In this document: positions 1 to 25,062 of the stretch, one piece after another | Layout of the letters: the number at the start of each line of letters is the position of its first letter | Numbering within the stretch: position 1 is the first letter of the stretch | DNA from: a virus | Taxonomy: Duplodnaviria > Caudoviricetes | Virus record (IMG/VR): IMGVR_UViG_3300020179_000036 | Location: 1-58,560 of that record | Length of the DNA stretch: 58,560 nt | Strand: one strand, 5' to 3' | Made by a program: the position numbers and the translations under genes | Notes under the pieces: generated by a model | The model's database searches: none | Told to the model about the DNA's origin: nothing | Seen by the model: the letters and a program-made list of their open reading frames with translations, nothing else

Positions 1-3000
1 TCCTCCTGCGCCCCCTGCTCCCCCCACGCTTGTCCAGGCACCTGTGCCGGATGACGAATGGGCTCGTCGCTTTGCAGAGCAAATCCAAGCCAACCGTGCA
101 GCTATTGATGCCGGTGAGATGACTATTGACGATCTGCTGGCTAATAACATCCAGAAGATTGAGTCGCCCTCTGGTGCCACCACGTATCAACCTGTCCAGC
201 CACAGGCCATGGTTGAGGGCTACCGGTCTTGGAGCGACTTGGTAAGTCGGTCTGATGCCACCGGCATTCGGACAATGACTGACGAGCAGATTGCCAGTGA
301 TACAGCTGCATGGCTTGCAAGAAACAACTACAGCACCGAAGCAGTATTTGAAAACTTGAAGCGCCTGAGCGGCCCGTTGTCGGCCTACAAAGAAAACCTA
401 GTTGCCATGCGCTCAATGGCCTTGTTGGTTGACAGCACAAACCTGGAAGCAGGTGTTGCTGCCAACCGCTGGCTCAACAGCGTTGTGGACGAAGCTGCCG
501 ACATGGGCCAGTTGACTGCTGAGCTGGTGACTGCCGCGGCCAAGCAGGATCGTGCCAACCGTGCCTTTGAATCTGTTACTAGACCGTTGGGTCAGTTGCT
601 GCGTAGCACCCAAATACCACGGCCTGAGCCTGGCTCTGTTCCGTTTAAGGACGGCGACGCAGCTGCTGCTGTGGTCGATGTTGAGGTGGTGCAACCTGGT
701 AAGAGCATTGGCGCTGACTTTGAAAAAGAGCTGGCCAAGGACCAAGAAGAGCTGATTGCTGACACCATCGGCGCCAAGATCAGTCCCGAAACTCGTGAGG
801 CCATTGTCACTGGCCAATACGACAACCCCAAGGTGATTGAGGAGCTGCAAGCCCTAGCTCTCAACATGGCGCAAGGCGCCGTTACACCTGGCTTTAGCCA
901 AGGCTTTTATTCCAAGATGAACAAAAGCGTAGGCCTTGGAGCGGAAGGTCTAATGATGTACCGCTCCAGCCAGCTGTTGTCATCAGGCGTCACCTTGTGG
1001 GGCAACGTTATTAACAGCGCCCTGCGCACGGTGGAACTGCCGTTTACGCAAGCTGTAGGTGCACTGGTCACTGGCAACCCACAGCGGGCTAGCCGGTCGT
1101 TAATGATCTACGGCCAATACGTCAGCAATTTGGCTAACGCTTTCCGTATGGGCGTGGAGTCGTTCAAGGTAGGCCGCGGCCTCTTTGACCTAGACCGCAG
1201 CCAGGTGGACTTCTTGGACCGCTTGGCAAAGCAAGATGCCAATGCCGAACTTATTGATACTGCTGCTAAGGGCGAATGGAACCTAAACACCTTGCCTTGG
1301 GTGTCAGTGCAAGACAGAAACAACTGGGCCATAGCGCAAAGGCGACTGTGGCAAACCCTTAATCTCAGCAGCCGCTTGCAAGTATCTGTTGACTCTGCCT
1401 TCAAAACCATGGTGGGCCAGTCGTTTGAATACGTGCGCAACCTGCAACCTGGCCTTGATCACGCTGCCCGCCTAGGGCTTGTTAACAACAGCAAGGAGGC
1501 TTGGCGGTTTGCACAGGACTATGCGCAGGCTGCAGTAGATCGCCGCCTGCAAGACGTTGTGATCGACGGCAAAACCATTCTTGATGGCGTCATGGATAGC
1601 CCCCATGCGCAAACTGCGACTAGGTGGGCCACTTTTACCGACGACATCTGGGCAAGCATGGAGCCGCGCACTATGCAGCGGGGCATGGAAATTGCCGAAG
1701 CCAAGGGTTTTAGAGATGCAGAAGCTAAGGCTTACGCCGAGGAATATGTAAACAAGGGCCCTGTGGGGGTTTTTGGAGAGCGCGTTTCTGACGTTCCGTT
1801 CTTTGCACGTACTTTCAGCGTGATGCCAAAGCTTTGGCAGACAGGCCTGGACTCAAAAGCAGCCCCCTTGTTTGCCCTAATACAGCCCTTTAACCGCACT
1901 CCTGGAGACATTATTAAGTCGGCGGCTCGCAAGACGCCACTGGCTCCTTTGGTAGATACGTGGTGGCGAGATGTGTTTTCTGAGGATGCCATGACCCGTG
2001 ACCGGGCATATGGCGATGTAGCGACTGGTGCTGCTGCTATCGCTCTGCTAAGTATTGCTGCAACTCATGGCCGCATACAGCTCACGGGTGGTGGCCCTGT
2101 TAACCCAGACGCAAGGCGCAAGTGGCTAGAGCAAGAAGGTAAGCAGCCGTATTCTTTGCGGTTCCGCACAGGAACTGACGAGAACGGCAATCCAATCTTT
2201 ACCGATTGGATCAGCATGCGAACTTTAGAACCTTTCGCGTCTTTGTTTGGAGGCTTAGCTGACTACCAAGAACTTGCGAACAAAGTGAGCACGGAAGCCC
2301 GTGAGCGCATGGGCTCAGCAATAATTATTGATTTTATAACTGCAGTAGGCCTTGGCCAAGTAAATAAGTCGTACTTTCAGGGTGTTATGGAAATTTACGA
2401 AGCGGCCATGAGCGCGGGCGAAACTGACATTGGCCCCAACCGGAGGCACCCCACCGCCCGTTACCTTGAGCGCCTTGTAGCAAGTCTCCTGCCTGGCAGC
2501 AGCGCACTACGTGCTGGCCGTCGCCTTGCCGACCCTACTGCCCGAGAAGTCGAACCCAGCAACAACCCCAACTTGGCGATGCGGTTGTTTGAGGAAACCG
2601 CAAGCGAAATTAAAAACATGATCCCTGGGTGGTCTGAGTCCCTACCTCCCAAGCGCAACTGGATTACGGGAGATCCCGTTATCCTGAGCGGCGTGTGGGG
2701 CGATTCGTTCCTGCCAGCTGATCAACCGTGGCTTGCGTCGTTGCTGCAGCTAAGCCCTGCGTCGCCATTCCAGCTAAAGCGTGACCCTGGAGAAGCAGTG
2801 CTGCGAGAGATGGGTCAACTTGCTGGCCGCGGCGCTGGCTTTGTTGGGCCCAGGTCCACAGACTTTACTAATGGCGGAACAATTAAGGACAACCGCTTGA
2901 GCCCTGTTGAGTTTGAGCAGTACATCCTGGCCATCAGCCGTACACCCGATCAGTTCGGCAGAACGCTGCTGCAGGCACTGGATGAAGAAATAAAGAGCGA

Positions 3001-3244
3001 CCTGTACCAGCAGAACCCACAGGGCCAACCCAGTGAACGAGTACCAAGCCTGCGCGTTGCTGCTTTGAACACCGTGATCAGCAAGTACCTGGCGCTAGGC
3101 CGCGAGACCTTCCTTACAGGGCCTTACGGCGTGCGGCTAATGGAGAACAAGGACTACTCCGAAGGAGCTAACCGTGACGTCCAGTTTCGGCTTAAATACG
3201 GTCAAGAGATTGACCCACGGTCCTTCATAGAGGCTCTGCGCTGA
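1..3244 (+). CDS. Internal virion (ejection) protein, gp16-like, phage X; 5'-truncated
   Basis: Frame is open from position 2, >1066 aa, directly upstream of the tail fibre. It shares motifs with 39873-43202 (ATFTDD/VTFTQAL, PYSL/PYSF, RNWITGDP/RDWLGDR). Confidence 0.75.
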   Translation, partial: PPAPPAPPTLVQAPVPDDEWARRFAEQIQANRAAIDAGEMTIDDLLANNIQKIESPSGATTYQPVQPQAMVEGYRSWSDLVSRSDATGIRTMTDEQIASDTAAWLARNNYSTEAVFENLKRLSGPLSAYKENLVAMRSMALLVDSTNLEAGVAANRWLNSVVDEAADMGQLTAELVTAAAKQDRANRAFESVTRPLGQLLRSTQIPRPEPGSVPFKDGDAAAAVVDVEVVQPGKSIGADFEKELAKDQEELIADTIGAKISPETREAIVTGQYDNPKVIEELQALALNMAQGAVTPGFSQGFYSKMNKSVGLGAEGLMMYRSSQLLSSGVTLWGNVINSALRTVELPFTQAVGALVTGNPQRASRSLMIYGQYVSNLANAFRMGVESFKVGRGLFDLDRSQVDFLDRLAKQDANAELIDTAAKGEWNLNTLPWVSVQDRNNWAIAQRRLWQTLNLSSRLQVSVDSAFKTMVGQSFEYVRNLQPGLDHAARLGLVNNSKEAWRFAQDYAQAAVDRRLQDVVIDGKTILDGVMDSPHAQTATRWATFTDDIWASMEPRTMQRGMEIAEAKGFRDAEAKAYAEEYVNKGPVGVFGERVSDVPFFARTFSVMPKLWQTGLDSKAAPLFALIQPFNRTPGDIIKSAARKTPLAPLVDTWWRDVFSEDAMTRDRAYGDVATGAAAIALLSIAATHGRIQLTGGGPVNPDARRKWLEQEGKQPYSLRFRTGTDENGNPIFTDWISMRTLEPFASLFGGLADYQELANKVSTEARERMGSAIIIDFITAVGLGQVNKSYFQGVMEIYEAAMSAGETDIGPNRRHPTARYLERLVASLLPGSSALRAGRRLADPTAREVEPSNNPNLAMRLFEETASEIKNMIPGWSESLPPKRNWITGDPVILSGVWGDSFLPADQPWLASLLQLSPASPFQLKRDPGEAVLREMGQLAGRGAGFVGPRSTDFTNGGTIKDNRLSPVEFEQYILAISRTPDQFGRTLLQALDEEIKSDLYQQNPQGQPSERVPSLRVAALNTVISKYLALGRETFLTGPYGVRLMENKDYSEGANRDVQFRLKYGQEIDPRSFIEALR

Positions 3245-4668
3245 TGGCTTACTCCTACGTCACCTACACGGGAAACGGCGCCACGACCCAGTTTGCGGTG
3301 CCGTTTGGATACATCCGTAAGGAACACATTGAAGTTTCTTTGAACGGGACGGTTACCGCAGCCTTCACCTGGGTTACCAACGCCACCATTCAAATGAACA
3401 CCGCTCCCGCCAACGCGGTAGTGGTCAAAATTTTACGGATCACCCCAGTCAACGCATCGCTAGTCAATTTCACTGACGGCAGCACGCCGGTTGCTAGCGA
3501 CTTCAACACGACTAACACGCAAGGCCTGTACACCAACCAGGAATTGCGGGACATATCGGACAGCACAAACGCCCTGTCAAGCCAAGCGGTAACGGCAGCG
3601 CAAAACGCGACGAACACAGCCAATAGTGCGTCAGCTTCTGCGGCATCTGCGGTTTCTACAGCTAACAACGCAAACAGCACAGCGCAATCAACTATTGCTA
3701 CAGCAAACACAGCTAGCGCAAACGCTGCGGCGGCAGTTAGCACAGCCAACAATGCATCAGCAGCTGCTGCAGCTGCAGTTAATACGGCTAACAATGCCTC
3801 TGCTGCAGTTGGAGCTGCAACTACAACTGCCAATAACGCAGCGGCTGCTGTGGCGGCAGCTACTTCTGCGGCAAACGGAGCTGTTAATACCGCAAACGCG
3901 GCCAATGCCACAGCAAATACAGCACTAGGCAACAGCCAAACAGCAATTACTACAGCCAACAACGCCTCCACTGCGGCAAGTAACGCAACGACTACCGCTA
4001 ACAACGCTTCTGCTACCGCTAACAACGCTTCTACAGCAGCAAATAACGCTGTTGGCACAGCAAACTCTGCAGCAGCTGCTGTAGCCAATGCACTTCTCTA
4101 TGACGTCGTTGCCAACGTAGCTGCAATACCAGCCAACCCTGCAAACAACAAAGCTGTTGAAGTAACAAACAGCTCAAACATTCAAGCATTTTCGCCACTT
4201 GCGGGACTGCCTGCAGGCTTTGTTGGAGCTAGTGGCCTGAGCGTGCGGATTGTTTATTCAACTGCAGGCGCGACGTGGAATTTTATTCAGTATTTCCCTA
4301 ACGATCCAGAAAACCGTTACTTAAAATTATCTGGCGGCACTTTGACTGGCGCTATTACTGGAACACAAACTGGCAACATTATTCCTTTTTATTTTAATAC
4401 TTACGCTGGACTGCCATCGGCATCTACTTACCACGGTGCCGTTGCTCACGCTCATGACACCGGAGGGTTGTACTACGCCCATGGCGGGCAATGGGTCCAA
4501 CTGGCGGTGGCTGGAGCTTCTGCAGGGGCAATTATTGAAAATCAACAAACGATCAATAGTAGCTACACCTTGTCAGCGGGCTACAATGGCTCATCAGTAG
4601 GACCTGTTACGGTAGCCGCTGGGGTTTCGGTGACAGTTCCCGCCAATGCCGTCTGGGCAATTCTCTAG
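3244..4668 (+). CDS. Tail fibre protein (T7 gp17-like N-terminal adaptor, Ala/Asn/Thr coiled-coil shaft)
   Basis: N-terminus YTGNGATTQFAVPFGYI...RITP is typical of the gp17 attachment domain. ANNAS/ANTA repeats follow, and the gene is in the expected position. Confidence 0.9.
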   Translation: MAYSYVTYTGNGATTQFAVPFGYIRKEHIEVSLNGTVTAAFTWVTNATIQMNTAPANAVVVKILRITPVNASLVNFTDGSTPVASDFNTTNTQGLYTNQELRDISDSTNALSSQAVTAAQNATNTANSASASAASAVSTANNANSTAQSTIATANTASANAAAAVSTANNASAAAAAAVNTANNASAAVGAATTTANNAAAAVAAATSAANGAVNTANAANATANTALGNSQTAITTANNASTAASNATTTANNASATANNASTAANNAVGTANSAAAAVANALLYDVVANVAAIPANPANNKAVEVTNSSNIQAFSPLAGLPAGFVGASGLSVRIVYSTAGATWNFIQYFPNDPENRYLKLSGGTLTGAITGTQTGNIIPFYFNTYAGLPSASTYHGAVAHAHDTGGLYYAHGGQWVQLAVAGASAGAIIENQQTINSSYTLSAGYNGSSVGPVTVAAGVSVTVPANAVWAIL

Positions 4669-4670
4669 CC

Positions 4671-5999
4671 ATGGCTTACGGATCGGTCAAAGTTGATTCC
4701 ATTGTGACTAGCACGCAGGTCATCAATACTGATGACTTGGTTGCTAAGACACGTACCGTCAGCCCCGGCACGGGTTTGACTGGCGGTGGCGATTTGTCTG
4801 CCAACCGCACCATCAGTGCTGATGTGGCAACGCAAGCTGAAGCCGAGGCCGGCGCGGCTGCAAACAAATTGATGACGCCGCAGCGCACAGCGCAGGCGAT
4901 TGCTTTGTTGTCGCCGGCTCCGGTGTTTGCCTCGCAGGCCGAAGCTGAAGCTGGCTCGGCATCCGACAAAGTGATGTCCCCGCTGCGCACAGCGCAGGCG
5001 ATTGCAGCTTTAAGTGGCGGCGCTGTCTACTACAACCGCAGACCTCCTCTGCATCGCGGCTCGCTGTTTTACAAGACGGCTGCAACCACAATCAGCGTGG
5101 TGGCCGGTGCTGTGCTTAACGGCAAGCTCTACGCCACGGCAACCGCTGTGACGATGCCTGCCAGCTTTACCAACAACAGCGACTACGCCATTTGGCAGCA
5201 CCCCAGCACTGGTGCTTTGGTGGCTGACGCCAACTACACAACAGCACCTGCTGGCGCCACTGGCGGCTCGATTGTTGGCGGCTTCCACTACGTCCCTAGC
5301 GGGCGGCCAACGGGTTTTAATAACACCTCCCCAACAGGTAGTGCCGAAATCCTGGAGTTCAGCATTTTTGATCTGACTTATCGCCCCAGCTGCCCAGACC
5401 CTCGCGGAATGGTTTGCATCAACGATGCGTTTTGGATTGACATCTATTTGGCAGGGGCCACCAGCTATGCCGGCAGCACGTTCTCTGCTGTCCCCAGCAG
5501 CAAGATCGGCCTGACCATTGCTGATGGCAGCAGCTACGCCCTGGTGCCCGCTCAGTACGGCGGCAACGGCAGCAGCAACTACGGCAGCTTTACCTGGTAC
5601 GAAGCCTCAGAAATGGCTGCCAGCTTTGGCAAGCGCCTGCCGTTCTATGCCGAGTTTGCAGCGGCTGCGTTTGGTGCTCCAGAGGCCGGCAGCCGTGGCT
5701 CTGACGCAGGCACGGTGCAGTGGGAGCGAATTAGCAAGTTTGGTTTGGCCCAGGCAACGGGCGTCATGTGGCAGTGGGGCGCAGACACCTCTGGAAACGG
5801 CTCTGGCGGCTCCTGGTCGGCCAACACTGAGGGTAGAGGCAGTGTGTATTCGACCGATGCCCGCGCCGTCCTCCTCGGGGGCTACTGGAACGACGGGGCC
5901 TACTCCGGGTCTCGTTACGCCGTCTGGGACACCGGTCCCTGGGCCTCCGCCAACGGCCTTGGGGCGCGTTTTGCGGCTGGGCACCTGGTACTTGGATAG
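4671..5999 (+). CDS. mtd: DGR target: Mtd-like receptor-binding protein (C-type lectin fold, C-terminal VR)
   Basis: DPRGMVCINDAFWIDIYL, GVMWQWG and a terminal LLGGYW..GSR..W...GARF..HL motif resemble Bordetella phage BPP-1 Mtd. The VR lies at the 3' end. Confidence 0.9.
   Translation: MAYGSVKVDSIVTSTQVINTDDLVAKTRTVSPGTGLTGGGDLSANRTISADVATQAEAEAGAAANKLMTPQRTAQAIALLSPAPVFASQAEAEAGSASDKVMSPLRTAQAIAALSGGAVYYNRRPPLHRGSLFYKTAATTISVVAGAVLNGKLYATATAVTMPASFTNNSDYAIWQHPSTGALVADANYTTAPAGATGGSIVGGFHYVPSGRPTGFNNTSPTGSAEILEFSIFDLTYRPSCPDPRGMVCINDAFWIDIYLAGATSYAGSTFSAVPSSKIGLTIADGSSYALVPAQYGGNGSSNYGSFTWYEASEMAASFGKRLPFYAEFAAAAFGAPEAGSRGSDAGTVQWERISKFGLAQATGVMWQWGADTSGNGSGGSWSANTEGRGSVYSTDARAVLLGGYWNDGAYSGSRYAVWDTGPWASANGLGARFAAGHLVLG
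5863..5979 (+). repeat. DGR variable repeat (VR), copy 1
   Basis: 117-bp match to TR 6435-6551 with 19 substitutions, all opposite TR adenines. Confidence 0.97.
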
Positions 6000-6001
6000 G
6001 A

Positions 6002-6015
6002 GGCGCGACAGCGCC
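6002..6015 (+). promoter_or_regulatory. DGR target-recognition hairpin downstream of VR/IMH
   Basis: GGCGC-GACA-GCGCC stem-loop with a GRNA-type loop just after the mtd stop codon; repeated at 46120-46133. Confidence 0.7.
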
Positions 6016-6023
6016 GACTGCAA

Positions 6024-6419
6024 ATGACCAACAAGCGAGCCTCCGCAGATCCTTCTAAGGAGGCTCATGGCCTTTACATGGTGGAAAAATACGAGCGGGT
6101 CATTGACTACCTTTACCCACTTGCGCAGACAATTCCACGCAAGCACGGCACCTTTCGAGAGCTGCTAATTCGGCAGCTTTTTTTGGTGGCCGAGCACCTT
6201 AACGACGCCATCAAGGCCAACCAGCTTAGCCGCTGCTATGTACTCGACGGCAGCCTTGGCCAGCTCAGGCTGTTGCTGCGGTTCATGGTTCATCACAAGC
6301 GCAAGCTGATAACAGAGCACCAACTGGAAACCGCTCAGGCCCTAGCAGGCGAGGTGGGCTCCATGCTTGGCGGCTGGATCAAAAGACTGCAGGAACAGAA
6401 AAAAAGTGCAAAGCTGTAG
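6024..6419 (+). CDS. avd: DGR accessory variability determinant
   Basis: 131-aa basic helical protein between target and TR, with C-terminal EVGSMLGGWIK typical of Avd. Confidence 0.92.
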   Translation: MTNKRASADPSKEAHGLYMVEKYERVIDYLYPLAQTIPRKHGTFRELLIRQLFLVAEHLNDAIKANQLSRCYVLDGSLGQLRLLLRFMVHHKRKLITEHQLETAQALAGEVGSMLGGWIKRLQEQKKSAKL

Positions 6420-6434
6420 GCGGGCTTGATGGGA

Positions 6435-6551
6435 GCGCCGTCATCCTCGGGGGCAACTGGAACAACGAGGCCAACTCCGGGTCTCGTAACGCCAACTGGA
6501 ACAACAATCCCTGGAACTCCAACAACAACATTGGGGCGCGTTTTGCGGCTG
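6435..6551 (+). ncRNA. DGR template repeat (TR), copy 1
   Basis: AAC-rich copy of VR (13 AAY codons, 29 adenines) between avd and RT. Confidence 0.96.
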
Positions 6552-6706
6552 TGGCCACTGCTAAACACCACTTGGCTCTGCTGTTTCTCCGGGGCAGTAG
6601 GCCGGTGCCAACCAGGTGCCAGCCATCAAGTCCAGCTTCGGCAAACTCAGGGCCGAGTGGTGGCAATGGCAGGGAGTAGCTCGTCGAAACCTGCCGCTAC
6701 CTTCTA

Positions 6707-7681
6707 ATGGGCAAAAAATTTCGCAATCTCTACGAACAGATTTATCAGTGGGATAATTTGCTTGCAGCCTACGCAGAGGCAAAGCGCGGCAAAACTTACA
6801 GCAGTTCCTATTTACGTTTTAAGGAGTACTACCTAGCCAATTTGCGCCACCTTCAGTTGCGATTGATTGAAGGCGGCTGGAGACCCGATCCGCAGTTGGA
6901 GTTTGAAATTATTGATCCCAAGAAGCGAATGATTGCCTGCCAAAGTTTTCGTGATCGCGTGCTGCACCACGCCCTGATACAGGTGGTCGGGCCGATTCTT
7001 GACGCCGCGATGATGCCCCAGGTGTTTGCCTGCCGGGTCGGCTTGGGTACGCATCGCTGTGTCACCCGAATGCAGCAGTTGATGCGGCAGAACCCTGATG
7101 CGTGGCTGCTGCACGTGGACTTCAGCAAGTTCTTTCCCACCATTCCCCAAGACCTGCTACTGGCCCACTTGGGCAAGAAGCTCACCTGCCAGCGCACGTT
7201 GCTGTTAATTGAGCAGGTACTAAGCGTGCAGCCCACTGGCGTGCCGATTGGGGCGCTCACCAGTCAGACCTTTGCCAACTATTGGGGCGGCAGGCTGGAT
7301 CGTTTTATCGCATTTAAAGGCATTGGCAGTTTTGTGCGTTACATGGATGACGCGGCTGTGATTGTGAGCAGCAAAGCCGATGGACTGCAACTTAAAGATG
7401 AGATTTGCTCTTTTGTTGCCAACGAAATGGGGCAGCGGATTGGCAAGTGGAGTTTAGGCCCCGTGAATCGCGGCATCACCTTTTGCGGTTTTCGCATCCG
7501 CCGCAAGTACAAGCTGATCAAGCGACAGTCCATAATCCGCCAACGGCGCAAACTCAAGGTGCTGCTTAAGCACCAGGACTACGAAGGCTGGCGCCATTCG
7601 CAGATTGCTTGGATGGGCCACGTGCGCCATGGTGATGGACAGAATAGTCTTGTCCACCTAGGGCTTGCATTACCATGCTGA
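6707..7681 (+). CDS. brt: DGR reverse transcriptase
   Basis: FRDRVLHHAL, DFSKFFPTI, GVPIGALTSQ and RYMDD motifs; 324 aa with no maturase or endonuclease domain. Confidence 0.96.
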   Translation: MGKKFRNLYEQIYQWDNLLAAYAEAKRGKTYSSSYLRFKEYYLANLRHLQLRLIEGGWRPDPQLEFEIIDPKKRMIACQSFRDRVLHHALIQVVGPILDAAMMPQVFACRVGLGTHRCVTRMQQLMRQNPDAWLLHVDFSKFFPTIPQDLLLAHLGKKLTCQRTLLLIEQVLSVQPTGVPIGALTSQTFANYWGGRLDRFIAFKGIGSFVRYMDDAAVIVSSKADGLQLKDEICSFVANEMGQRIGKWSLGPVNRGITFCGFRIRRKYKLIKRQSIIRQRRKLKVLLKHQDYEGWRHSQIAWMGHVRHGDGQNSLVHLGLALPC

Positions 7682-7926
7682 TCGTCAACACCCCCTCCGA
7701 CTTGGCAGCTGCAGAAGTTGGCACCGAGCGGACGGCTTTTCTGAACAGCCTGCTGAATGACTACATCGTTTTTGATGACGCGGCCTATCCCGAAGGCTAT
7801 GACCGCAATCTGAAGGAAGGCGATGAAGGCTTTATTGCTCCCGTTATTCGCCAAGAATGGAACGCAGGCGCTGCTGCTGGCTGGGGTTTCGCCAGCCGAG
7901 AGCAGATCGAGGCATTGCTGAATTAA
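7675..7926 (+). CDS. Small protein coupled to the DGR RT
   Basis: Overlaps the RT stop codon; conserved in copy 2 (47793-48041) with mostly synonymous changes. Confidence 0.75.
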   Translation: MLIVNTPSDLAAAEVGTERTAFLNSLLNDYIVFDDAAYPEGYDRNLKEGDEGFIAPVIRQEWNAGAAAGWGFASREQIEALLN

Positions 7927-8639: not shown

Positions 8640-8897
8640 TTGCTCGTGGTTGAGGTCGCTGCCGCGGTGTTAGGCGCCGCCATTACAGTCAGCGCCATGG
8701 GCGTAGGGGCCTTGGGGGCACGCGGCAGGGAGGGGAGGGACGCTCTGATTCGTTTGGCTTCCAGTGTGGACAACGTGGCAGAACGCCTTGAACAGTTGCA
8801 CGAGGACATCAGGAGTGACCGCAAGGAGTTCTTTTCTCGCCTAAACAATGTTGAGCAGCGTGTTGCTCGGCTTGAGGTGCCCGGCCCGCACATTTGA
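8640..8897 (+). CDS. Membrane/coiled-coil protein in the lysis region
   Basis: Hydrophobic N-terminus plus coiled coil; homolog at 48227-48472. Confidence 0.7.
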   Translation: MLVVEVAAAVLGAAITVSAMGVGALGARGREGRDALIRLASSVDNVAERLEQLHEDIRSDRKEFFSRLNNVEQRVARLEVPGPHI

Positions 8898-8921
8898 CAC
8901 AGTTCTCCACGTGTGTAGCGT
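8894..8921 (+). promoter_or_regulatory. Sigma70-like promoter with an operator in the spacer
   Basis: TTGACA (8894-8899), 16 bp, TAGCGT (8916-8921); operator motif TCTCCACGTGTGTAGC at 8904-8919. Confidence 0.55.
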
Positions 8922-8943
8922 TAGGTGGTGAGATCCCTGCGCT

Positions 8944-9129
8944 ATGGATCGTTTCGGTCAGTACGTCGCCTTGGCGATTGCGGTGCATGGGTTGGCGCTT
9001 GTGATCGTCAACATCACGCCAACGCCTAAGGACGACGAGGCTCTCGATGCAATCCAGCGAGTGGTGGTGAAGTTGTATCGAGCAGTCGAGATCCTCGCAG
9101 GGATCGTCGGGCCATTGGCGAAAAGGTAA
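8944..9129 (+). CDS. Putative holin
   Basis: 61 aa with a TM segment followed by TPTPKDD; lies near the endolysin. Confidence 0.6.
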   Translation: MDRFGQYVALAIAVHGLALVIVNITPTPKDDEALDAIQRVVVKLYRAVEILAGIVGPLAKR

Positions 9130-9132
9130 GCG

Positions 9133-9360
9133 GTGCAACCCTTTGTCGCACGCCAAGAACTGGATTTTAGGCAGGAGGCGACAAAAAGGCTGCTGCAGGA
9201 GCTGCACGAGCAGAACGACATTGATGGGCTGATGAATGTGGCCCTGCTGCTGAACAGCTTGTGGCATCAACAAAGCGCGATTGCCCGGTGGTTTGCCAAC
9301 GAAGCGGCTGAAAACCTGGGTGAGGCCTGGCAGTCGCAGCGGCCTAAGGACGACATGTGA
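9133..9360 (+). CDS. Hypothetical protein
   Basis: Homolog at 48469-48723 (WHQQSAIA.W...EAA.NL). Confidence 0.7.
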   Translation: MQPFVARQELDFRQEATKRLLQELHEQNDIDGLMNVALLLNSLWHQQSAIARWFANEAAENLGEAWQSQRPKDDM

Positions 9361-10060
9361 GATACCAGCCACCGGAACCACCCGGCATCCAGCGTGGGTT
9401 CCAGTTTTTGCGGCTGTAGACGATGCCAGCGCCCTTGGTGTTGGGGGTGTAGCCCCCACCCACCAACTGAGCCTCGCCGTTGGGATCGTTCTGGATCCAG
9501 GCGGCATCGGTGTAGCCGATCACCACAGACCAATGCCCACCGCCCGTAGGAGCGCCTACAGGGCCCTTGTGGAGCCAGCCAACAGCAACAGGCCTGCCAG
9601 CGTCAATCTCGCTTTCCAGGGCCTCTGAAGTGCCATTGGTGTGGAAGTCAGCCTTGAGCCCCAGTTTTCGCAACGCAGCCAGCTGTGCTTGAGCTGAGGT
9701 GCTGTCACCAAACGGCTGCCGAACAGCGTTGTAGGCGTCGTCATTGGAGATCTTGCCCCAATACATGGCAAGCATGGCGCAAGAGGAGGAGAAGCACTCC
9801 CGGTAGCCCTGGCCGCTCTTGTTATCGAGTTGGCTCTGCCACTTGACGTTTAGCGGGTTGCGGACAAGTGCTGCATGTTGCTGCACTGGCAAGCTCTTGT
9901 AGATCTGTGCCCACTCCGCTGATTCAGTCAGTAGGCACGGATCTACGGCCTTGATGTGCTCAGCGAGCTTGATCACACCTTTGATTTGGTGTGCCTGGCC
10001 TTTGAAGTTCTGCCAGAACTGCAGCCACCGCTCGTCAGTAAACTGAATTTCCTGGATCAT
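9344..10060 (-). CDS. Endolysin, C39-like cysteine peptidase (phage Y)
   Basis: SQLDN..RECFSSSCAM, GGHWSVVIGY and NDP motifs; likely start ATG at 10060. Confidence 0.8.
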   Translation of the reverse strand: MIQEIQFTDERWLQFWQNFKGQAHQIKGVIKLAEHIKAVDPCLLTESAEWAQIYKSLPVQQHAALVRNPLNVKWQSQLDNKSGQGYRECFSSSCAMLAMYWGKISNDDAYNAVRQPFGDSTSAQAQLAALRKLGLKADFHTNGTSEALESEIDAGRPVAVGWLHKGPVGAPTGGGHWSVVIGYTDAAWIQNDPNGEAQLVGGGYTPNTKGAGIVYSRKNWNPRWMPGGSGGWYLTCRP

Positions 10061-10089
10061 GGAGACCAAAGCTCTCCACCCATGTAACC

Positions 10090-10383
10090 GTGGCTGATCT
10101 CGCAAAGGAACTTGAGGAGCTGCACGCTTCCGTCATCCGTGAAGTTCGGGACCGCATCGACAAGGGCGGCTACGACGATGACGGCAATCTCAAGCCGACC
10201 AGCAACGATGACCTGCGGGTGGCCTTGCAGCTGCTGAAGCAAAACAGCATTACCGCCAATCTCTCCGAGAGCGACACTGCCAAGTTGCGCTCACAAATGG
10301 CCGGCAAACTAGACTTCTCAGCGCTGAAGAACAAGGTCAACGTGGTGCCAATAGTGCGGCCTGACGAGTCCGCTACCGCTTGA
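10090..10383 (+). CDS. Terminase small subunit (gp18-like), phage Y
   Basis: LEELH...DLRVALQLLKQNSITA resembles 52258-52500 (LADLH...ELNVLRQFLKDNQISA). Confidence 0.7.
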   Translation: MADLAKELEELHASVIREVRDRIDKGGYDDDGNLKPTSNDDLRVALQLLKQNSITANLSESDTAKLRSQMAGKLDFSALKNKVNVVPIVRPDESATA

Positions 10384-12181
10384 CTCCACCAAATGCTCTG
10401 GCCTTGGGCTGTGGTCTCCACCCCATTGCCAGGGCATCAATGCTGGCGCCGGTTTCATCGAACCAGGCCTGGCGCATTAGCTCATCCATCTCGTCCTGGC
10501 GAGCTGCTTTGGCCTTTTCCTGGTCCTGGGCCGCGGCATCAATAAAAAACTTGACCCCCAGGGCTAGCGCATCAAGGCGATCATCAAACGTCAGTGAGCC
10601 CCGCTCAACGGTGATGCGGCTCATCTGGTACATCAATGAGCGCTGGTGGCCAGTTTCGGGGTCACGTTCAGCGTCGTGATAGTCCCTGCGGATCAGCTCG
10701 CTGCTGACCACCAGGCGGTGTTGCTGAACCAGCGGGGCGAGGGTGTCCACGATGCGGCGTTCCTTTTGCTGGCTGACGCGCACCTCCTCGATTGAGACCG
10801 GATGCACCTTGGCCATTGCCGGTGACAGCAGAGCGGTGAACATGCCATCGCCCATGTTGCTCTCAGCCACGCAGTAGCTGACCTGCCAGCGCTTGGCGCG
10901 GCTGGCCAGCATCGTCAGCACCTCCGGCTCATAACCCCGGGTGGTGCCCCCGGACTCAAGCAGGAAGAAATTGCCGTTCAGCTCAGCGATTACAGCCCAG
11001 GCCAGCTCATCACTGCCGCGGCCAGAGGGGTCAATCGCCAGCACGCAGCGCCAAGTTTCTTCCTGCGATACCCAGCCATTCACCACAGCTGGGCGGTGGT
11101 AGTAGCGGTCAGCGCCCAGGCCAACGCACAGCAGCTCCTGGATGCGGTTCTCCGGCGTGGCGGCCCACACCACCACCTCTGGCAGGGCCTTGCCATCAAG
11201 GTCCATCACCATCAGATCACCCAATCGAATGGGGTAGCGATCGAGGGTGCTGAGGCGGCAGTTCAGCTGGTACTGCAGCTGGACCGCAGCCCGGGTCATG
11301 CGGGTTTCGCGCTTTAGCAGCTCGTGGTGACCAAAGCGTTCGGGATCTGTTGGTTCCCCCGCCAGGGTTACGTTGCTCTGAACGGACTGAGCAATGCCGG
11401 GTGCCAAGTTGCCCTCGTAGCAATCCCACTCATCGGCATCGGTCGGATCAGGAAATCGAGCCGGCCAGAAGCGAATTGAGTAGTTCCGCTCGCGCACCAG
11501 TCGTAGGTACAGCGAGCTCTCGAGGTGGGGAGTACCCAGGTAGCGAATCTGTCTTGGAAATACCTGGCGTTGTCCGGCCTGGCTGTAGTCCCTAGGTGCG
11601 TTGGGGTCAAAGTCCGGTTCATCCGGCTTGATGATTGCCTCAAGCTCGGTCACCGCCTGGGCCAGGCGTTCCTGCTTTAGCGGTGTGATTGAGTTGTTAA
11701 GCGTCTCAATGTCGTCCGGCAGCGCCAGGGTGCAGCGCTTACCCGTGAGCGAGGGGGACAAAATCCCCACAGTGCGAACACTTGGGCTCTGGTCGATCAC
11801 AGCAGGGCCCACATCAAAGGCCTTGATGGATGAGCGGCCATCAGGCCTGGGCTCCAGGCAACGAAGAATGTCCACATCCCGGATGCAGCGGGCCATGAAC
11901 GTCGCCACCTCATCGGCTTTCTCAGCGGTAGCCGCTGGAATCAAGACTTTTTCGGTAAAGGGGTCATGACGCAGCCGCCAGAGGGCGTAGCTACCGGACT
12001 CAAAGCTCTTGCCCAACCCGCGGTAGGCCGTGGTGATGGAACGATCAGGACCGTTCTCGAGCCATTCAGCGACTTCCAACTGGCGGATGGTCGGCGTATC
12101 CGCCAGGTTCAGCTCCCGCAGCAGGTAGCAAAGGAAATGGGGGAAAGGCCCTAGTTCAGGTGGCAACGGTTCCCATTGCAT
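10373..12181 (-). CDS. Terminase large subunit (gp19-like), phage Y
   Basis: AYRGLGKS Walker A, DDIE Walker B, LGTP, IDPSGRGSDE nuclease motif and DDRLDAL. Confidence 0.95.
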   Translation of the reverse strand: MQWEPLPPELGPFPHFLCYLLRELNLADTPTIRQLEVAEWLENGPDRSITTAYRGLGKSFESGSYALWRLRHDPFTEKVLIPAATAEKADEVATFMARCIRDVDILRCLEPRPDGRSSIKAFDVGPAVIDQSPSVRTVGILSPSLTGKRCTLALPDDIETLNNSITPLKQERLAQAVTELEAIIKPDEPDFDPNAPRDYSQAGQRQVFPRQIRYLGTPHLESSLYLRLVRERNYSIRFWPARFPDPTDADEWDCYEGNLAPGIAQSVQSNVTLAGEPTDPERFGHHELLKRETRMTRAAVQLQYQLNCRLSTLDRYPIRLGDLMVMDLDGKALPEVVVWAATPENRIQELLCVGLGADRYYHRPAVVNGWVSQEETWRCVLAIDPSGRGSDELAWAVIAELNGNFFLLESGGTTRGYEPEVLTMLASRAKRWQVSYCVAESNMGDGMFTALLSPAMAKVHPVSIEEVRVSQQKERRIVDTLAPLVQQHRLVVSSELIRRDYHDAERDPETGHQRSLMYQMSRITVERGSLTFDDRLDALALGVKFFIDAAAQDQEKAKAARQDEMDELMRQAWFDETGASIDALAMGWRPQPKARAFGGVKR

Positions 12182-12292
12182 CAAGAGAGCCCTCCCACAT
12201 CCAAGGACGCAGAAGGGCTCTCCCAACAACCACCACCAGACACAAGATCTGGCAGTGAGCTTCCCAGCACCACCTGGGTGAGCACGACAACT

Positions 12293-13757: not shown

Positions 13758-14732
13758 ATGACCACCACCACCACCAAGGCCCGCAAGGGCCGCAAGACTT
13801 ACGACGGCCCTACGGCTGAGGAGAAGCTCTGCAGCGAGCTAGTGGCTCTCCTTGAGCAAGGGGTGAACCCTTGGCGTCGGGACTGGGCCAGCAGCGGCCA
13901 ACAGGGCCAGCATCGCAACCTGCTCACCGGGGCCAGCTACCGGGGAAGCAACCCTGCAGTGCTTGAGATGTACTCAGCCTGTAGAGGTTTCACCTTGCCG
14001 CTGTGGCTGGGCTGCGCTCAGGCCAAGGCCCAGGGCTGGTTCCCGCGTAAGGGTTCGAAGGGCTGCTACGTGCTCAGGCCACAGCTCAACAAACGAGAGC
14101 TAGAGGATGACAACGGCCAACCACTGCTGCAGCCCGATGGCACGCGATCAGTGGCGGCCTGGGTGAGCTACAAACCGGCCTGCGTCTTTAACGTCGCCGA
14201 CCTGGTGGGCGGTGATGAAGCCAGCCAGGAGGTACTGCAGAACGCCATTGCCGCGGCCATGGCCGGGGCCGTGGTGAAGCCTGAACCTGAACGCCTGGCA
14301 GCTGCTGAGGCTGTGCTCGGGGCCTGGCCTGTCAGCACCACCTGGGCCGGTGATCGGGCTTTTTACAACTCCGGCGCTGATCAGATCACGATGCCCACCA
14401 GGGCCCAGTTCGGCACAGCTGCTGGCCTGTATGCCACCTGGGCCCATGAACAGGCCCACAGCACCGGACACAGCAGCCGGCTAGCCCGTGATCTATCTGG
14501 CGGGTTTGGCAGCCAGAAATACGCCAGGGAGGAACTGGTTGCAGAGCTCGCAGCCTTCCTGATCTGCAACCGCCTGCAGATCCCCTCAGCTGCAGAGAAC
14601 CACGCCGCCTACCTGGGCCACTGGGCCGGTGTGCTCAAGGAAGGCCACAAGGTGCTTTTCAAGGCCCTGAGCGATGCCACCAAGGCCGCCAACGCGATCT
14701 GCGGGCCGGAAGTGGTAGAGGCCGACGGCTGA
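13758..14732 (+). CDS. ardC: ArdC-like antirestriction / ssDNA-binding protein with a zincin domain
   Basis: PWRRDW, YRGSN, VFNVAD, HEQAHSTGH, YAREELVAEL and HAAYLGHW motifs. Confidence 0.88.
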   Translation: MTTTTTKARKGRKTYDGPTAEEKLCSELVALLEQGVNPWRRDWASSGQQGQHRNLLTGASYRGSNPAVLEMYSACRGFTLPLWLGCAQAKAQGWFPRKGSKGCYVLRPQLNKRELEDDNGQPLLQPDGTRSVAAWVSYKPACVFNVADLVGGDEASQEVLQNAIAAAMAGAVVKPEPERLAAAEAVLGAWPVSTTWAGDRAFYNSGADQITMPTRAQFGTAAGLYATWAHEQAHSTGHSSRLARDLSGGFGSQKYAREELVAELAAFLICNRLQIPSAAENHAAYLGHWAGVLKEGHKVLFKALSDATKAANAICGPEVVEADG

Positions 14733-16369: not shown

Positions 16370-17368
16370 ATGGCAGGCACCGTCCGTAAGGCCTCTGACG
16401 GCAGCTGGATTGCCGACGTCACCGTCAACGGTGTGCGTCGCACTGGCAAATGCAAAAGCCGATCAGAAGCCCTGGCCCGCAAGCGAGAACTGCTCGAGCT
16501 GCTGCTGCAGCGCGATGCCAAGCCCCTTGCAGCCCCTCCGTACACCCTTAAAGAAGCCCGAGCTCTGTCCCTGCGCATCCGCTGGGCAGGCACCGCCTAC
16601 GAGCGCACAGCAGCGATCTACAGCCGCGAGGCCGTGGACTATTTCGGTGAGTTCTTCCCGGCCAACGAGATCACAGCTGCCTCTGTTGACACCTGGCGGC
16701 AGAAGCTGCTGTCCAAGGGCAACCGCCCCAGCACGGTCAACCGCAAGGTGTCAGCCATCAGGGCCATGCTCGCTGATGCCCACCTGCACGGGCACCTGCA
16801 GGAAATACCGCGGATGCCCCAGCAGCTGCGCCTGGTCAACACCAAAGACCGGGTGATCAGCGATGAGGAGCGCGATCGCTTCTGTCTGTACTTCAGGCAG
16901 GTGGGCGAGCCCGCCGCGGCCGACGTGCTGGTGTTCCTGCTTGAGACCGCCTGCCGGTGGGGTGAGGCCGAGCGGGTGAGGGGTCAGGACGTTGATCTGG
17001 TGAAGGGTCGCGTCACCTTCTGGGCCACCAAGAACGGCAAGCCCCGCTCTGTGCCGTTGACCCGCCGTGCCATTGAGGCCCTGGAGCCGCACCTGCCGGC
17101 CGTGCCCAGCCATCGAGTGTGGCCCTACAAGTACACCCGCTATCAGCACCTGTTCAACCTGGCTAAGGGTGCCCTGGGCCTGGCCAATGACAGGGCCCTG
17201 TCTATTCACACCACGCGCCACACCTGCGCCAGCAAGCTGGCCAGCAAGGGCATCCCGCTGCACCAGCTGATGACCTTCGGAGGATGGACAAGCCTGGCCT
17301 CAGTGCAGCGCTACCTGCACCTGCACACCGACGCCCTGGCCGCCTGCGTCAGCGCACTGGAGAGCTGA
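16370..17368 (+). CDS. int: Tyrosine integrase, phage Y
   Basis: Catalytic R (TACRWGE), K (TKNG), HxxR (HTTRH), W (GGW) and Y (QRY); N-terminal arm-binding beta domain. Confidence 0.93.
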   Translation: MAGTVRKASDGSWIADVTVNGVRRTGKCKSRSEALARKRELLELLLQRDAKPLAAPPYTLKEARALSLRIRWAGTAYERTAAIYSREAVDYFGEFFPANEITAASVDTWRQKLLSKGNRPSTVNRKVSAIRAMLADAHLHGHLQEIPRMPQQLRLVNTKDRVISDEERDRFCLYFRQVGEPAAADVLVFLLETACRWGEAERVRGQDVDLVKGRVTFWATKNGKPRSVPLTRRAIEALEPHLPAVPSHRVWPYKYTRYQHLFNLAKGALGLANDRALSIHTTRHTCASKLASKGIPLHQLMTFGGWTSLASVQRYLHLHTDALAACVSALES

Positions 17369-17585: not shown

Positions 17586-17706
17586 TGGCTTTGCTGTGGA
17601 TGCGTCCACCGGCCTGAAAAATCTGCCGATGCGTTTGGCAGAGATGCTTGAAGCAGACCCATTGGCAGACCCCCTAAATCCCCGAGATGCCTTATGGTGA
17701 CTGGGC

Positions 17707-17749
17707 GGGGGTCTAGCTATCTGGTGAAAGCAGCGGACTCATAATCCGC
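17707..17749 (+). other. attP core of phage Y: 5' half of a tRNA with CAT anticodon (Ile2/Met-type)
   Basis: GGGGGTCTAGCTATCTGGTGAAAGCAGCGGA-CTCATAA-TCCGC gives acceptor 5' strand, D-arm and anticodon arm, but no T-arm or 3' end; downstream of int. Confidence 0.8.
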
Positions 17750-17861
17750 TGCAAGACCATCCACCCCTGCAGAGCAGTCGTGTTTCCTGTCTGCTGCTAG
17801 GCGTTAGACAGTTCTGCATAGGTGGGGTGGAATTGGTGCCGAAAGCACCCGTAACTGCCGA

Positions 17862-20273: not shown

Positions 20274-20346
20274 GACACACCTAGGCGTGTTGCGGACCTG
20301 CACCTAGGTGGATACGGTGCTGCTGCACTCCACCTGTAGCGAGCAA

Positions 20347-21009
20347 ATGCCGCGACGCGCAACACTCATCACCCCCGTAGGTGAGGCTGCCTGGGCCAAG
20401 ATCCTGGGCGAACCCGCTGAGCCGTTTGATGGCGACGGTCCCCGGGCCTGGTCCGTCAACCTGCTGCTGGACCCCAACGATCCGAGCACCGTCGAGTTCA
20501 TCGAGAAACTCGAGGCCGAGTTTGCTGAGCTTCATGGCAGCGGCAAGATCAAATACAGCGCCAACGCTTGGCCTTTCGGTGAAGACACCACCAAGGACGA
20601 GCAAGGCCGCAAGGTGCCGACCGGCAAGATGCGCTTCAACTTCAAGCGCAAAGAGACTACCGCCCGTGGCGATGTGAAGTTGCCGCCTGTGGTGACTGAC
20701 TCCAAGCTCAACCCTTGGCCCGCGGCCAAGCTGATCGGCAACGGCAGCAAGATTCGCGTTGCCTTCCAGCCGTGGGGATGGGACACCCCAACCGGCAAAG
20801 GCATGAGCCTTGAGCTTATGCAGGTGCAGGTGTTGGATCACGTTGCTTACGAAAGTGCTGAAGACGCCCCGGTGTTTGAGAAGACCGACGGCTTTGTGTT
20901 GGAAGCAGAGGAGACCCCGGTGTTTGAGCGCGAGCCCGAACTGGCCGTGCTCAGCCCGAGCCAGCGGCTGCGCAAAAGCCAGGAGGTTCCTGATGAGATT
21001 CCTTTCTGA
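20347..21009 (+). CDS. ssDNA-binding protein (gp2.5-like)
   Basis: TPVGEAAWA, IGNGSKIRV, GMSLELMQVQVL motifs and an acidic tail ending DEIPF. Confidence 0.88.
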   Translation: MPRRATLITPVGEAAWAKILGEPAEPFDGDGPRAWSVNLLLDPNDPSTVEFIEKLEAEFAELHGSGKIKYSANAWPFGEDTTKDEQGRKVPTGKMRFNFKRKETTARGDVKLPPVVTDSKLNPWPAAKLIGNGSKIRVAFQPWGWDTPTGKGMSLELMQVQVLDHVAYESAEDAPVFEKTDGFVLEAEETPVFEREPELAVLSPSQRLRKSQEVPDEIPF

Positions 21010-21401
21010 TGGGATTGCGCACCGCCGATTTCGTACTGCCCGTTCCGCTGCAACCCAAGTCAAGGCCACGCTTTACTTTGAAAGGCAGGGCTTACAAGGA
21101 CAGCAAATACAGGGAGTGGACGGAATCCGTTCGCTCAATTCTTGGCGAGTGGTGGACCCTGCCACCGCTCGAAAAAGGACAAGTGGTGGCTTTGCACTTG
21201 ACCTTTTTTGGCCCGGGGACTTCGGACCTGGACAACTTGGCTGGTGCCGTGATGGATGCCGGCACGGGAATTGTGTGGTCGGACGACAAGGTGACCGTGT
21301 TGCAACGCATCGAAGCTCAGTGGCTGAAAAAGCCCATGAACGCACAGGCCATTTATCTCAAGGTGATTTGGAATGAAAACACCGTTCCCGCTGCGGCGTG
21401 A
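21009..21401 (+). CDS. rusA: RusA-like Holliday junction resolvase
   Basis: PKSRPRF and DLDNLAGAVMDA...WSDD motifs. Confidence 0.8.
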   Translation: MGLRTADFVLPVPLQPKSRPRFTLKGRAYKDSKYREWTESVRSILGEWWTLPPLEKGQVVALHLTFFGPGTSDLDNLAGAVMDAGTGIVWSDDKVTVLQRIEAQWLKKPMNAQAIYLKVIWNENTVPAAA

Positions 21402-21579
21402 GCAGTCGTGCATCAACTGCTTTTACGCCTGTGGCGACAAAGAGGTTGGCGTCCTGTTGTCTTGCCGGCGCAATCCACCTGTTGTTTTCAACACAGGTTC
21501 CTACACGAGAGGCTGCTGGCCGTTTGTTAAGGGGTACGAATGGTGTGGCGAGTGGGCGCCGGAGGAGGTGGTGGCATGA
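21373..21579 (+). CDS. Small Cys-rich protein
   Basis: CxxC...CRRNPP...WP...WCGEW, a small phage protein pattern; overlaps both neighbours. Confidence 0.65.
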
Positions 21580-25060: not shown

Positions 25061-25062
25061 CC

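Follow-up and report, generated by a model that had tools for sequence, protein, structure and literature searches.

A BPP-1-type diversity-generating retroelement in T7-like phages of probable freshwater picocyanobacteria

Introduction

The closest described counterpart of the locus reported here is the diversity-generating retroelement (DGR) of the podovirus BPP-1. In that cassette, the gene for the target protein Mtd, which ends in a variable repeat (VR), is followed by a short G+C hairpin, avd, a template repeat (TR), a Phage_DGR spacer RNA, and a reverse transcriptase (RT) gene. TR and VR differ only at adenines of TR, of which the BPP-1 TR has 23, and the BPP-1 model for the initiation of mutagenic homing (IMH) predicts that the 3' end of VR is G+C rich, with a flank that differs from the one on the TR side. 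Here, we describe a complete cassette of this type in a virus genome from IMG/VR. The sequence analyzed, hereafter called the window, is the whole of virus record IMGVR_UViG_3300020179_000036 (58,560 bp), and the cassette lies directly behind a gene for a gp17-like tail fiber; a second copy occurs farther downstream (Table 1). We estimate the probability at about 85% that this is a functional BPP-1-type DGR that diversifies the receptor-binding fiber tip of T7-like phages of freshwater picocyanobacteria (Cyanobium and Synechococcus), these phages being relatives of the Synechococcus phage S-SRP02.

Picocyanobacteria rank among the major primary producers, with a population structure that is shaped by the host range of their phages. 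Full-text searches, which did not cover catalog supplements, returned no description of a DGR for any T7-like phage, member of the Autographiviridae, cyanopodovirus, or Synechococcus phage, and the main text of the global DGR survey mentions neither cyanophages nor podoviruses. A survey of cyanobacterial DGRs (PMC7517822) describes them as absent from Synechococcus and Prochlorococcus genomes and could assign no cyanobacterial DGR to a prophage. The large IMG/VR DGR catalogs probably already hold these loci without comment. An earlier note on this DNA had held that DGRs are untypical of Autographiviridae-type phages and cyanopodoviruses and that this may be a host-range diversification system not yet described in that group, which agrees with the literature that we searched. 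The claim needs narrowing: the carrier lineage and the host group are new, but the mechanism is well understood, and mtd is already annotated in the Synechococcus phages S-CBS1 and S-CBS3. If our reading is correct, a textbook tropism-switching DGR now has a place in phages of a Synechococcus-type host group, and the DGR-less cultured phage S-SRP02 offers a natural contrast for host-range work. Additional points of interest are a module shared across phage types, a remnant of it in cultured phages, and a probable assembly artifact in the database record.

TR and VR differ only at template adenines

When compared without gaps at an offset of 572 bp, TR and VR match over 118 bp (VR 5862-5979, TR 6434-6551). 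The 20 mismatches in this stretch all coincide with TR adenines, of which there are 30, and all lie at codon positions 1 or 2. Because the A-to-C difference at position 5862 is identical in most relatives, we took the remaining 117 bp as the working repeat. Here, 19 of 29 TR adenines differ, compared with 0 of 88 other bases, and the probability that 19 random mismatches would all fall on 29 adenines among 117 positions is 6e-15. The number of possible VR sequences is 4^29 = 2.9e17; in the protein, 16 codons can vary, 13 of which are AAY, none can become a stop codon, and ~1.2e17 variants can be encoded. The earlier note had arrived at the same tally over 117 bp (19 of 29 adenines and nothing else) and had put the number of VR sequences at ~3e17; the ungapped comparison and our calculation reproduce both.

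The surroundings of VR also carry candidate target-site signals. The final 21 nt are identical in VR and TR and are G+C rich, and beyond the end of the repeat, VR and TR have different flanking sequences, both of which are conserved among family members. A hairpin (GGCGC-GACA-GCGCC) begins 22 nt past VR. The fold energy of this region alone does not differ from that of shuffled sequences (z = -0.2). The hairpin is retained in all 31 family members examined, and its fourth pair is a compensatory C:G in 10 sequences, relative to G:C in the other 21. By analogy with BPP-1, the 3' end of VR with its flank may act as the IMH, and the hairpin may act as a cruciform.

Every component has a homolog in the BPP-1 DGR

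The order of mtd with VR, hairpin, avd, TR, and RT behind a gp17-like fiber, as read in the earlier note, agrees with the open reading frames (ORFs) and with their Pfam and PHROGs matches. Residues 132-441 of the Mtd-like protein align to residues 66-380 of BPP-1 Mtd (PDB 1yu0-1yu4 and 2iou), and in this sequence alignment the VR-coded residues fall inside the aligned Mtd C terminus. The target is thus predicted to have the Mtd/C-type-lectin fold with VR at its C terminus. Avd matches the Bbp7/Avd structure, and RT residues 1-314 align to the BPP-1 bRT structure (E values are given in Table 1). Among cultured phages, BPP-1 and its kin provide the best RT matches, with 39% identity to BPP-1 Brt. 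RTs of the DGR clade are recognized by a catalytic YxDD motif together with an [I/L/V]GxxxSQ motif; the RT translation carries YMDD and IGALTSQ. The spacer between TR and RT matches RF03022 at model positions 1-127 of 127, scoring 65.4 bits against a gathering score of 50, and this match is present in both cassette copies of the window.

The locus therefore shares with the BPP-1 DGR its gene order, homologous Mtd, Avd, and RT proteins, a TR with 75% DNA identity, the Phage_DGR spacer RNA, adenine-only TR/VR differences, AAC-rich TR codons, a short G+C hairpin behind VR, and a podovirus carrier. Since every part is homologous and stands in the same order, the earlier note's description of a complete BPP-1-type DGR is strictly correct, and it is underpinned by direct matches to the solved BPP-1 Mtd, bRT, and Avd structures and to the Phage_DGR RNA. 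The two systems also differ in several respects. Unlike BPP-1, the carrier here is T7-like, with its own RNA polymerase (RNAP) and a gp17-type fiber, and its hosts are probably cyanobacteria. The N-terminal adaptor of its Mtd is extended (131 aa precede the aligned part, compared with 65 in BPP-1 Mtd) and includes two 34-aa repeats. In addition, an 83-aa ORF lies behind RT, the RT is only 39% identical, and the TR has 29 template adenines.

On the BPP-1 model, an RNA comprising TR and the spacer (6435-6701) would be bound by a complex of RT and Avd, and RT would copy it into cDNA, misincorporating opposite the 29 template adenines. This cDNA would then replace VR, guided by the G+C-rich 3' end of VR, its specific flank, and the hairpin, such that the 16 codons at the Mtd C terminus would be recoded without stops into ~1e17 possible proteins. 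The gp17-like protein would attach to the tail by its N-terminal domain, which is specific to the backbone, and the Mtd adaptor would bind the conserved C terminus of the fiber. The whole module (fiber shaft, mtd, avd, TR, RT, and the 83-aa ORF) probably moves between phage backbones.

VR varies across the family and apparently in lakes

Scanning IMG/VR with the window RT yielded 44 loci whose RTs are 75-91% identical to it. A TR/VR pair could be read by ungapped comparison in 30 of these loci, which makes 31 pairs with the window. Twelve of the 44 loci lack a VR pair: 10 have a TR with no VR found (at least 56 non-adenine mismatches), most of them on contigs that end just upstream of TR, and 2 (L026 and L045) have no TR. 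Also left out of the pair count were L023, with a match of only 28 nt, L031, whose pair did not fit the ungapped comparison, and L037, because of a length filter. The pair in L037 nevertheless has 17 of 28 adenines changed and zero other mismatches.

Over the 31 pairs, 505 of 863 TR adenines differ, compared with 34 of 2,795 other bases. At the adenine positions, the TR columns are conserved (0.33 bits), whereas VR is close to random in the corresponding columns (1.63 bits). Five loci (L007, L018, L019, L029, and L035) have one and the same TR but five different VRs. When 25 Mtd homologs were aligned, the 16 TR-adenine codons had a mean entropy of 2.62 bits, relative to 0.60 bits for the rest of the core, and these codons made up 12 of the 20 most variable positions.

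The locus was partly present in 20 lake or freshwater metagenome runs from 19 studies, with at least half of the sampled words found in six of them. Contigs end at position 5870 in lake runs X1 and X2, and one restarts at 5959 in X2; the first and last mutable VR positions are 5871 and 5958. Such breaks at the edges of the mutable stretch were found in two of four lake metagenomes. Exact matches between TR and VR extend to 21 nt at most, which is too short for the repeat to fragment a 31-mer graph or to account for these breaks. In run X4, a contig over 5339-6628 has 28 differing letters. These data provide good indirect evidence that VR diversification occurs in nature, and the cassette is apparently active, in which case mutagenic retrohoming may be ongoing.

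Several points weigh against this reading of the locus. No retrohoming event was directly observed, and the lake evidence comes from assembled Logan contigs, with within-sample variation inferred from contig breaks. In run X3, a single 2,941-nt contig over 3721-6661 crosses VR without any difference. The 34 non-adenine TR/VR differences across the family depart from the expected pattern, as does L031, which has 23 non-adenine mismatches in the ungapped comparison and a TR match split by an indel. The two copies in the window have identical VRs, which, if real, would argue against recent activity; we read them as probably a collapsed repeat. An AlphaFold2 model of Mtd built from a 25-row alignment of close relatives was unusable (mean predicted local distance difference test score of 39), so the placement of VR on a C-type-lectin surface rests on the alignment to BPP-1 Mtd. 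Mtd is probably the distal tip of a two-piece fiber, its docking being deduced from the fiber and Mtd sequences, and in S-CBS3 mtd sits between head and tail-joining genes, where its place in the virion is uncertain. Finally, the hosts were assigned by resemblance to a single cultured phage, by metagenomic binning, and by a tRNA fragment.

Taken to its limit, doubt about activity would make the cassette an inactive relic whose adenine pattern records past events. S-CBS3 shows that the module can decay, since avd, TR, and most of the RT gene are deleted there, and the common VR of the two window copies would fit such a relic. This explanation is nonetheless highly improbable in our view, given that the ORFs are all intact, that the catalytic YMDD and the DGR motif are present, and that TR, spacer RNA, and hairpin are conserved. 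Loci with identical TRs but different VRs argue against it as well, as do the contig breaks that coincide with limits of the mutable stretch in two of the lake samples. A functional DGR therefore remains the reading that we prefer.

The two cassette copies probably belong to two phages

The two copies of the module are 100% identical over the central 3,322 bp (4397-7718), VR included. Their 21 differences all lie in 3768-4396 and 7719-7887, i.e., at most 675 bp from the left edge and at most 170 bp from the right edge. Outside the module, the duplicated functions are far less alike: the terminase at 50528-52258 is only 41% identical to that at 10373-12229, the integrase at 56918-58021 is only 29% identical to that at 16370-17368, and nothing in 39828-43202 matches the internal virion protein at 2-3244.

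We consider it probable that the window is an assembler path running from the left part of one phage (Y) through the module, a second phage (X), and the module again into the right part of Y, rather than a tandem array. Phage X would then be a 40,118-bp, S-SRP02-like genome (7890-43838 plus one module), and phage Y, also T7-like but distinct and more abundant, would consist of 1-3720, one module, and 48009-58560. Contig depths in runs X1, X2, and X3 were 87, 97, and 45 over the Y-specific head of the fiber gene, compared with 17, 36, and 9.6 over the X-specific stretch 8852-12000, with a ratio that shifts between runs. The abundant contig over 7468-7886 has five differing letters, which fit the variants of the second copy, and continues into 48005 onward in X1 to X3. 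In a self-BLAST of the window, no 40-kb unit bordered by long direct repeats of the att type was evident.

Alternatively, the window could represent one real molecule in which two related phages, each with its own DGR, are joined head to tail as a co-integrate that arose by recombination within the common module, a mixed concatemer, or a prophage array, with VRs that became identical after recent exchange. The record is indeed a single 58,560-bp contig, the 21 differences near the copy ends mean that it is no simple assembler duplication, and the 2,941-nt contig of run X3 matches the first copy without difference. However, the X- and Y-specific depths differ in a ratio that varies by run, both exits from the module occur in the same samples, and the window contains no host DNA and only one attP-like (phage attachment) site. 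Moreover, the first and last 1,545 bp of G001, a related 43.7-kb contig, overlap at 95% identity, which implies that walk-round assemblies through strain variants occur in this family. One real molecule thus seems unlikely. With an assembler path as the preferred reading, the identical VRs are not to be taken as a biological fact.

Separately, contigs of a diverged relative cover positions 1-3200 of the window in X1 to X3 at a depth of 300-800, five to eight times that of the cassette, which points to a far more abundant phage that also has this internal virion protein gene.

The carriers are T7-like phages related to S-SRP02

T7-like phages usually have all of their genes on one strand and encode a T7-type DNA polymerase and a primase-helicase. 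Phage X carries the T7-type structural and packaging genes (portal, scaffold, major capsid protein [MCP], tail tube, internal core proteins, gp17 fiber, and terminase) as well as a T7-type single-subunit RNAP, as the earlier note had proposed in calling these phages T7-like and RNAP encoding. On the plus strand, RNAP is followed by a protein with a weak match to the T7 single-stranded DNA-binding protein, an NrdR-like protein (zinc ribbon), and a 5'-3' exonuclease. Portal, scaffold, MCP, tail tube B, three large internal proteins, a second gp17-like fiber (43245-44786), and the second cassette come next. We detected no DNA polymerase or primase-helicase among the scanned phage X ORFs (window 20281-25974), a scan that did not include all small ORFs. 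Phage X thus appears to depart from the T7 plan of one coding strand with polymerase and primase-helicase, and the plan of S-SRP02 is identical to its own. The single-subunit RNAP is evident for phage X only, as the corresponding part of phage Y lies outside the window.

S-SRP02 (MW822601) is the nearest cultured relative; it comes from a tropical lake and was isolated on Synechococcus sp. SR-C1 (PMC8790148, Front Microbiol 2022), and its GenBank record places it in the Autographiviridae. It shares with phage X a plus strand that encodes integrase, T7-type RNAP, 5'-3' exonuclease, portal, scaffold, MCP, tail tubes, internal proteins, and fiber, and minus-strand genes for a C39 endolysin and a T7-type terminase. 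Protein identities are 91% for MCP, 92% for TerL_A, 85% for portal, 80% for integrase, and 65% for RNAP. In contrast, S-SRP02 has no RT, Avd, or Mtd that could be found by tblastn with the window proteins, and none is annotated; a term search of the text of PMC8790148 returned no "reverse transcriptase," "retroelement," or "tropism."

The link between RNAP and DGR is independent of the window, since an RNAP (67% and 72% identical, respectively) and one intact DGR occur together on each of two other IMG/VR contigs, G004 (41.3 kb) and G001 (43.7 kb). The search for viral genomes with both a T7-like RNAP and a DGR RT, which the earlier note had suggested, thus returned positive examples. Among 50 genomes with a homolog of the T7-like MCP, a close RT was found only in a Synechococcus metagenome-assembled genome (MAG), with distant RTs on other contigs in G020 and G046. 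Temperate T7-like prophages, which share T7-like structural genes and an integrase with the phages described here, have reportedly been found in other bacteria (by Boeckman et al., in Virology in 2022).

Three further features of these genomes may be recorded. The endolysin and T7-type large terminase genes of both phages (8809-12229 and 49326-52258) lie on the minus strand, as in S-SRP02, which is atypical for T7-like phages. The ORF at 34184-36997 encodes a 937-aa internal virion protein with a C-terminal domain of the endolysin/amidase type (residues ~807-935). The protein labeled "DNA polymerase I" in the S-SRP02 record is a homolog of the 246-aa 5'-3' exonuclease of phage X.

Table 1. Positions of the DGR cassettes and other features in the 58,560-bp window
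Feature	Position	Strand	Basis or remarks
gp17-like tail fiber of phage Y	3244-4668	+	PF03906 (Phage_T7_tail) N-terminal domain, E 2e-29; tail-fiber PHROGs
Mtd-like DGR target protein, 442 aa	4671-5999	+	PF21916 (Mtd second domain); phrog_11262, E 2e-124; PDB 1yu1 and others, E 5e-54
VR, 117 bp	5863-5979	+	Encodes Mtd residues 398-437 (C terminus); 19 of 29 TR adenines changed
Candidate IMH	5959-5996	+	21-nt G+C-rich stretch identical in VR and TR, then family-conserved VR-specific flank unlike TR flank
Hairpin 3' of VR	6002-6015	+	5-bp G+C stem, GNNA loop; present in centroid fold
Avd accessory protein, 131 aa	6024-6419	+	PF22296 (bAvd), E 2e-20; PDB 4dwl (Bbp7), E 5e-28; 8ub7 chain B
TR, 117 bp	6435-6551	+	29 adenines, mostly in AAC codons; 75% DNA identity with annotated BPP-1 TR
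DGR RNA spacer between TR and RT	6575-6701	+	Rfam RF03022 (Phage_DGR); strong family conservation
DGR RT, 324 aa	6707-7681	+	RVT_1; phrog_1423, E 2e-88; PDB 8ub7 (bRT), E 3e-71
Acidic 83-aa ORF	7675-7926	+	phrog_30757 (function unknown), E 3e-36
C39-type endolysin and T7-type large terminase of phage X	within 8809-12229 (terminase 10373-12229)	-	Pfam, PHROGs
ArdC-like anti-restriction N-terminal domain fused to zincin metallopeptidase	13758-14732	+	Upstream of integrase
Tyrosine integrase of phage X	16370-17368	+	phrog_1; PF00589; 80% identical to S-SRP02 integrase
tRNA-like element without T arm, candidate attP	17705-17770	+	Between integrase and RNAP; Rfam at loose threshold
T7-type single-subunit RNAP of phage X, 803 aa	17862-20273	+	phrog_414, E 2e-125; 64.6% identical to S-SRP02 RNAP
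Second module copy, behind phage X fiber (43245-44786)	43839-48008	+	99.5% identical to 3721-7889
Second copy, mtd	44789-46117	+	
Second copy, VR	45981-46097	+	
Second copy, hairpin	46120-46133	+	
Second copy, avd	46142-46537	+	
Second copy, TR	46553-46669	+	
Second copy, DGR RNA	46693-46819	+	
Second copy, RT	46825-47799	+	
Second copy, small ORF	47793-48041	+	

Picocyanobacteria are the probable hosts

The earlier note had named picocyanobacteria as probable hosts, and three lines of evidence agree. First, the backbone proteins are 65-92% identical to those of Synechococcus phage S-SRP02. Second, when GTDB was scanned with an alignment of the MCP, the best matches were in two Cyanobium MAGs (86% and 57%), with a Synechococcus MAG lower at 40%; weaker matches came from many T7-like prophages in other phyla, many of them inside large bacterial contigs. 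A whole-genome search of the Synechococcus MAG revealed an RT 84% identical to that of the window on a 3.1-kb contig. The family matches in the Cyanobium and Synechococcus MAGs are on binned contigs of 3-42 kb and constitute weak evidence. A first GTDB scan with the RT only had produced 26 pattern matches, none of which was confirmed; in view of the 84%-identical RT found later, that scan suffered from a miss of sensitivity.

Third, phage X has a tRNA-like element, lacking a T arm, in the interval that separates its integrase and RNAP genes. ARAGORN reported no tRNA in the window. The first 45 nt of the element correspond to the 5' half of tRNA-Met(CAT) of all three Cyanobium and Synechococcus MAGs at 91-96% identity, compared with 87% over 39 nt of the tRNA-Met fragment in the best of 47 other genomes. 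The comparison of the att core with host tRNAs suggested in the earlier note thus identifies picocyanobacterial tRNA-Met(CAT) as the best fit. G002, a contig of the second T7-like lineage described below, has the same tRNA-Met fragment adjoining its unrelated integrase. It is unusual for an attP to carry the 5' rather than the 3' half of a tRNA.

Based on the tyrosine integrase and the attP-like tRNA-Met copy, we infer that these phages are temperate. The earlier note had stated this outright; the integrase and the attP-like fragment favor it, but no integrated copy was seen in the Cyanobium and Synechococcus MAGs, and the phages are better called probably temperate.

The hosts could also be another freshwater group, with the cyanobacterial links arising from mis-binning and shared genes. 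The MAG matches are on short or phage-sized contigs whose binning could be the result of coverage, tRNA genes are well conserved even between phyla, and the S-SRP02 paper (PMC8790148) lists best protein matches in MAGs labeled Sphingomonadaceae and Rhodobacteraceae. These points are outweighed by the isolation of S-SRP02 on Synechococcus sp. SR-C1, its terminase, MCP, portal, and integrase being 80-92% identical to those of phage X, and by the 72-75% DNA identity of mtd to that of S-CBS1 and S-CBS3, both of which were isolated on Synechococcus. The tRNA-Met fragment, with its closer match in the three picocyanobacterial MAGs than in the 47 other genomes, likewise points away from a different host, which we regard as quite improbable. 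Picocyanobacteria thus remain the hosts that we favor.

On a longer contig, the Synechococcus MAG with the 84%-identical RT encodes one more RT, at L139 (G013:C423:33718-34572), which is only distantly related (33% identical, E = 3e-44). This may belong to another DGR, either of the host or of another phage.

The module is found on unlike phage backbones

Ten long contigs of the family were compared as a whole with the window, S-SRP02, and S-CBS3. G001, G004, and G010 have S-SRP02-like backbones, with MCPs 85-91% identical to that of the window. G002 and G003 represent a second T7-like lineage (MCP 39% and RNAP 26-28% identical) that is nearest to the uncultured MedDCM-OCT-S39-C11, and G008 is of a third T7-like type (MCP 60%) nearest to MedDCM-OCT-S37-C6. 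The uncultured G009 is an S-CBS3-like siphovirus with a full cassette (terL 87% and portal 75% identical to those of S-CBS3), and G005 to G007 are of another or an unclear backbone type. RTs that are 82-90% identical occur in these unlike backbones. In an RT tree of 11 sequences, none of seven inner branches was well supported, so the tree neither shows nor excludes transfer of the cassette; the argument for transfer therefore rests on the dissimilarity of the backbones, and we claim no direction for it.

The borders of the module and the pairing of its proteins bear on how it might be exchanged. In the phage Y fiber, residues 2-141 form the backbone-specific, tail-binding N-terminal domain, and the left border of the module in the window lies just past this domain; from base 3721 onward, the fiber gene is part of the module common to the second copy. 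The Mtd N terminus is highly variable among loci, with Mtd lengths of 345-952 aa. Where it resembles that of the window, the upstream ORF has the C terminus of the window fiber (5 of 5 loci), whereas a weak match to this C terminus was found in 2 of 19 other loci with an upstream ORF to examine (L020 and L022). The conserved parts are the last ~45 residues of the fiber and the first ~25 residues of Mtd. A complex prediction with three copies each of the fiber C terminus and the Mtd N terminus scored 0.01, which counts neither way on docking.

Cultured phages bear on the history of the module. The Synechococcus siphoviruses S-CBS1 and S-CBS3, neither of which has avd or TR, have an annotated mtd whose core is 80% identical to the window mtd in protein and 72-75% in DNA. 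In S-CBS3, mtd has a VR-like end and is followed by the same hairpin, then by the 3'-terminal ~110 nt of the RT gene, and then by the 83-aa ORF (L076 8790-9150, compared with window 5780-6030 and 7380-7700); avd, TR, and most of RT are cleanly deleted from this siphovirus backbone. By this alignment, the cultured phage S-CBS3 keeps a remnant of a deleted cassette. S-CBS1 gave the same pattern of DNA matches. The contigs compared here show a receptor-binding module that podoviruses and siphoviruses have in common.

Whether a conserved plug-in module travels between four or more unrelated backbones of lake phages that infect picocyanobacteria by way of exchangeable N-terminal adaptors, with an exchange so recent that 3.3 kb are identical, is in our judgment an evenly balanced question. 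If it does, programmed host-range hypermutation would be a mobile trait common to phages controlling freshwater Synechococcus and Cyanobium, one that S-CBS1 and S-CBS3 would have lost.

Three smaller features of the module remain. The 83-aa ORF lies 3' of RT in all 10 long family contigs, and behind the RT remnant in S-CBS3; no transmembrane segment was apparent by eye in its translation. Within the Mtd adaptor, 73-nt repeats at 4831-4903 and 4933-5005 (81% identical) encode a motif of ~34 aa twice, and some relatives have a single copy of it. The fiber shaft (window 3600-4100) contains about ten 42-nt (14-aa) repeats rich in Ala, Asn, and Thr, spaced at multiples of 21 or 42 nt.

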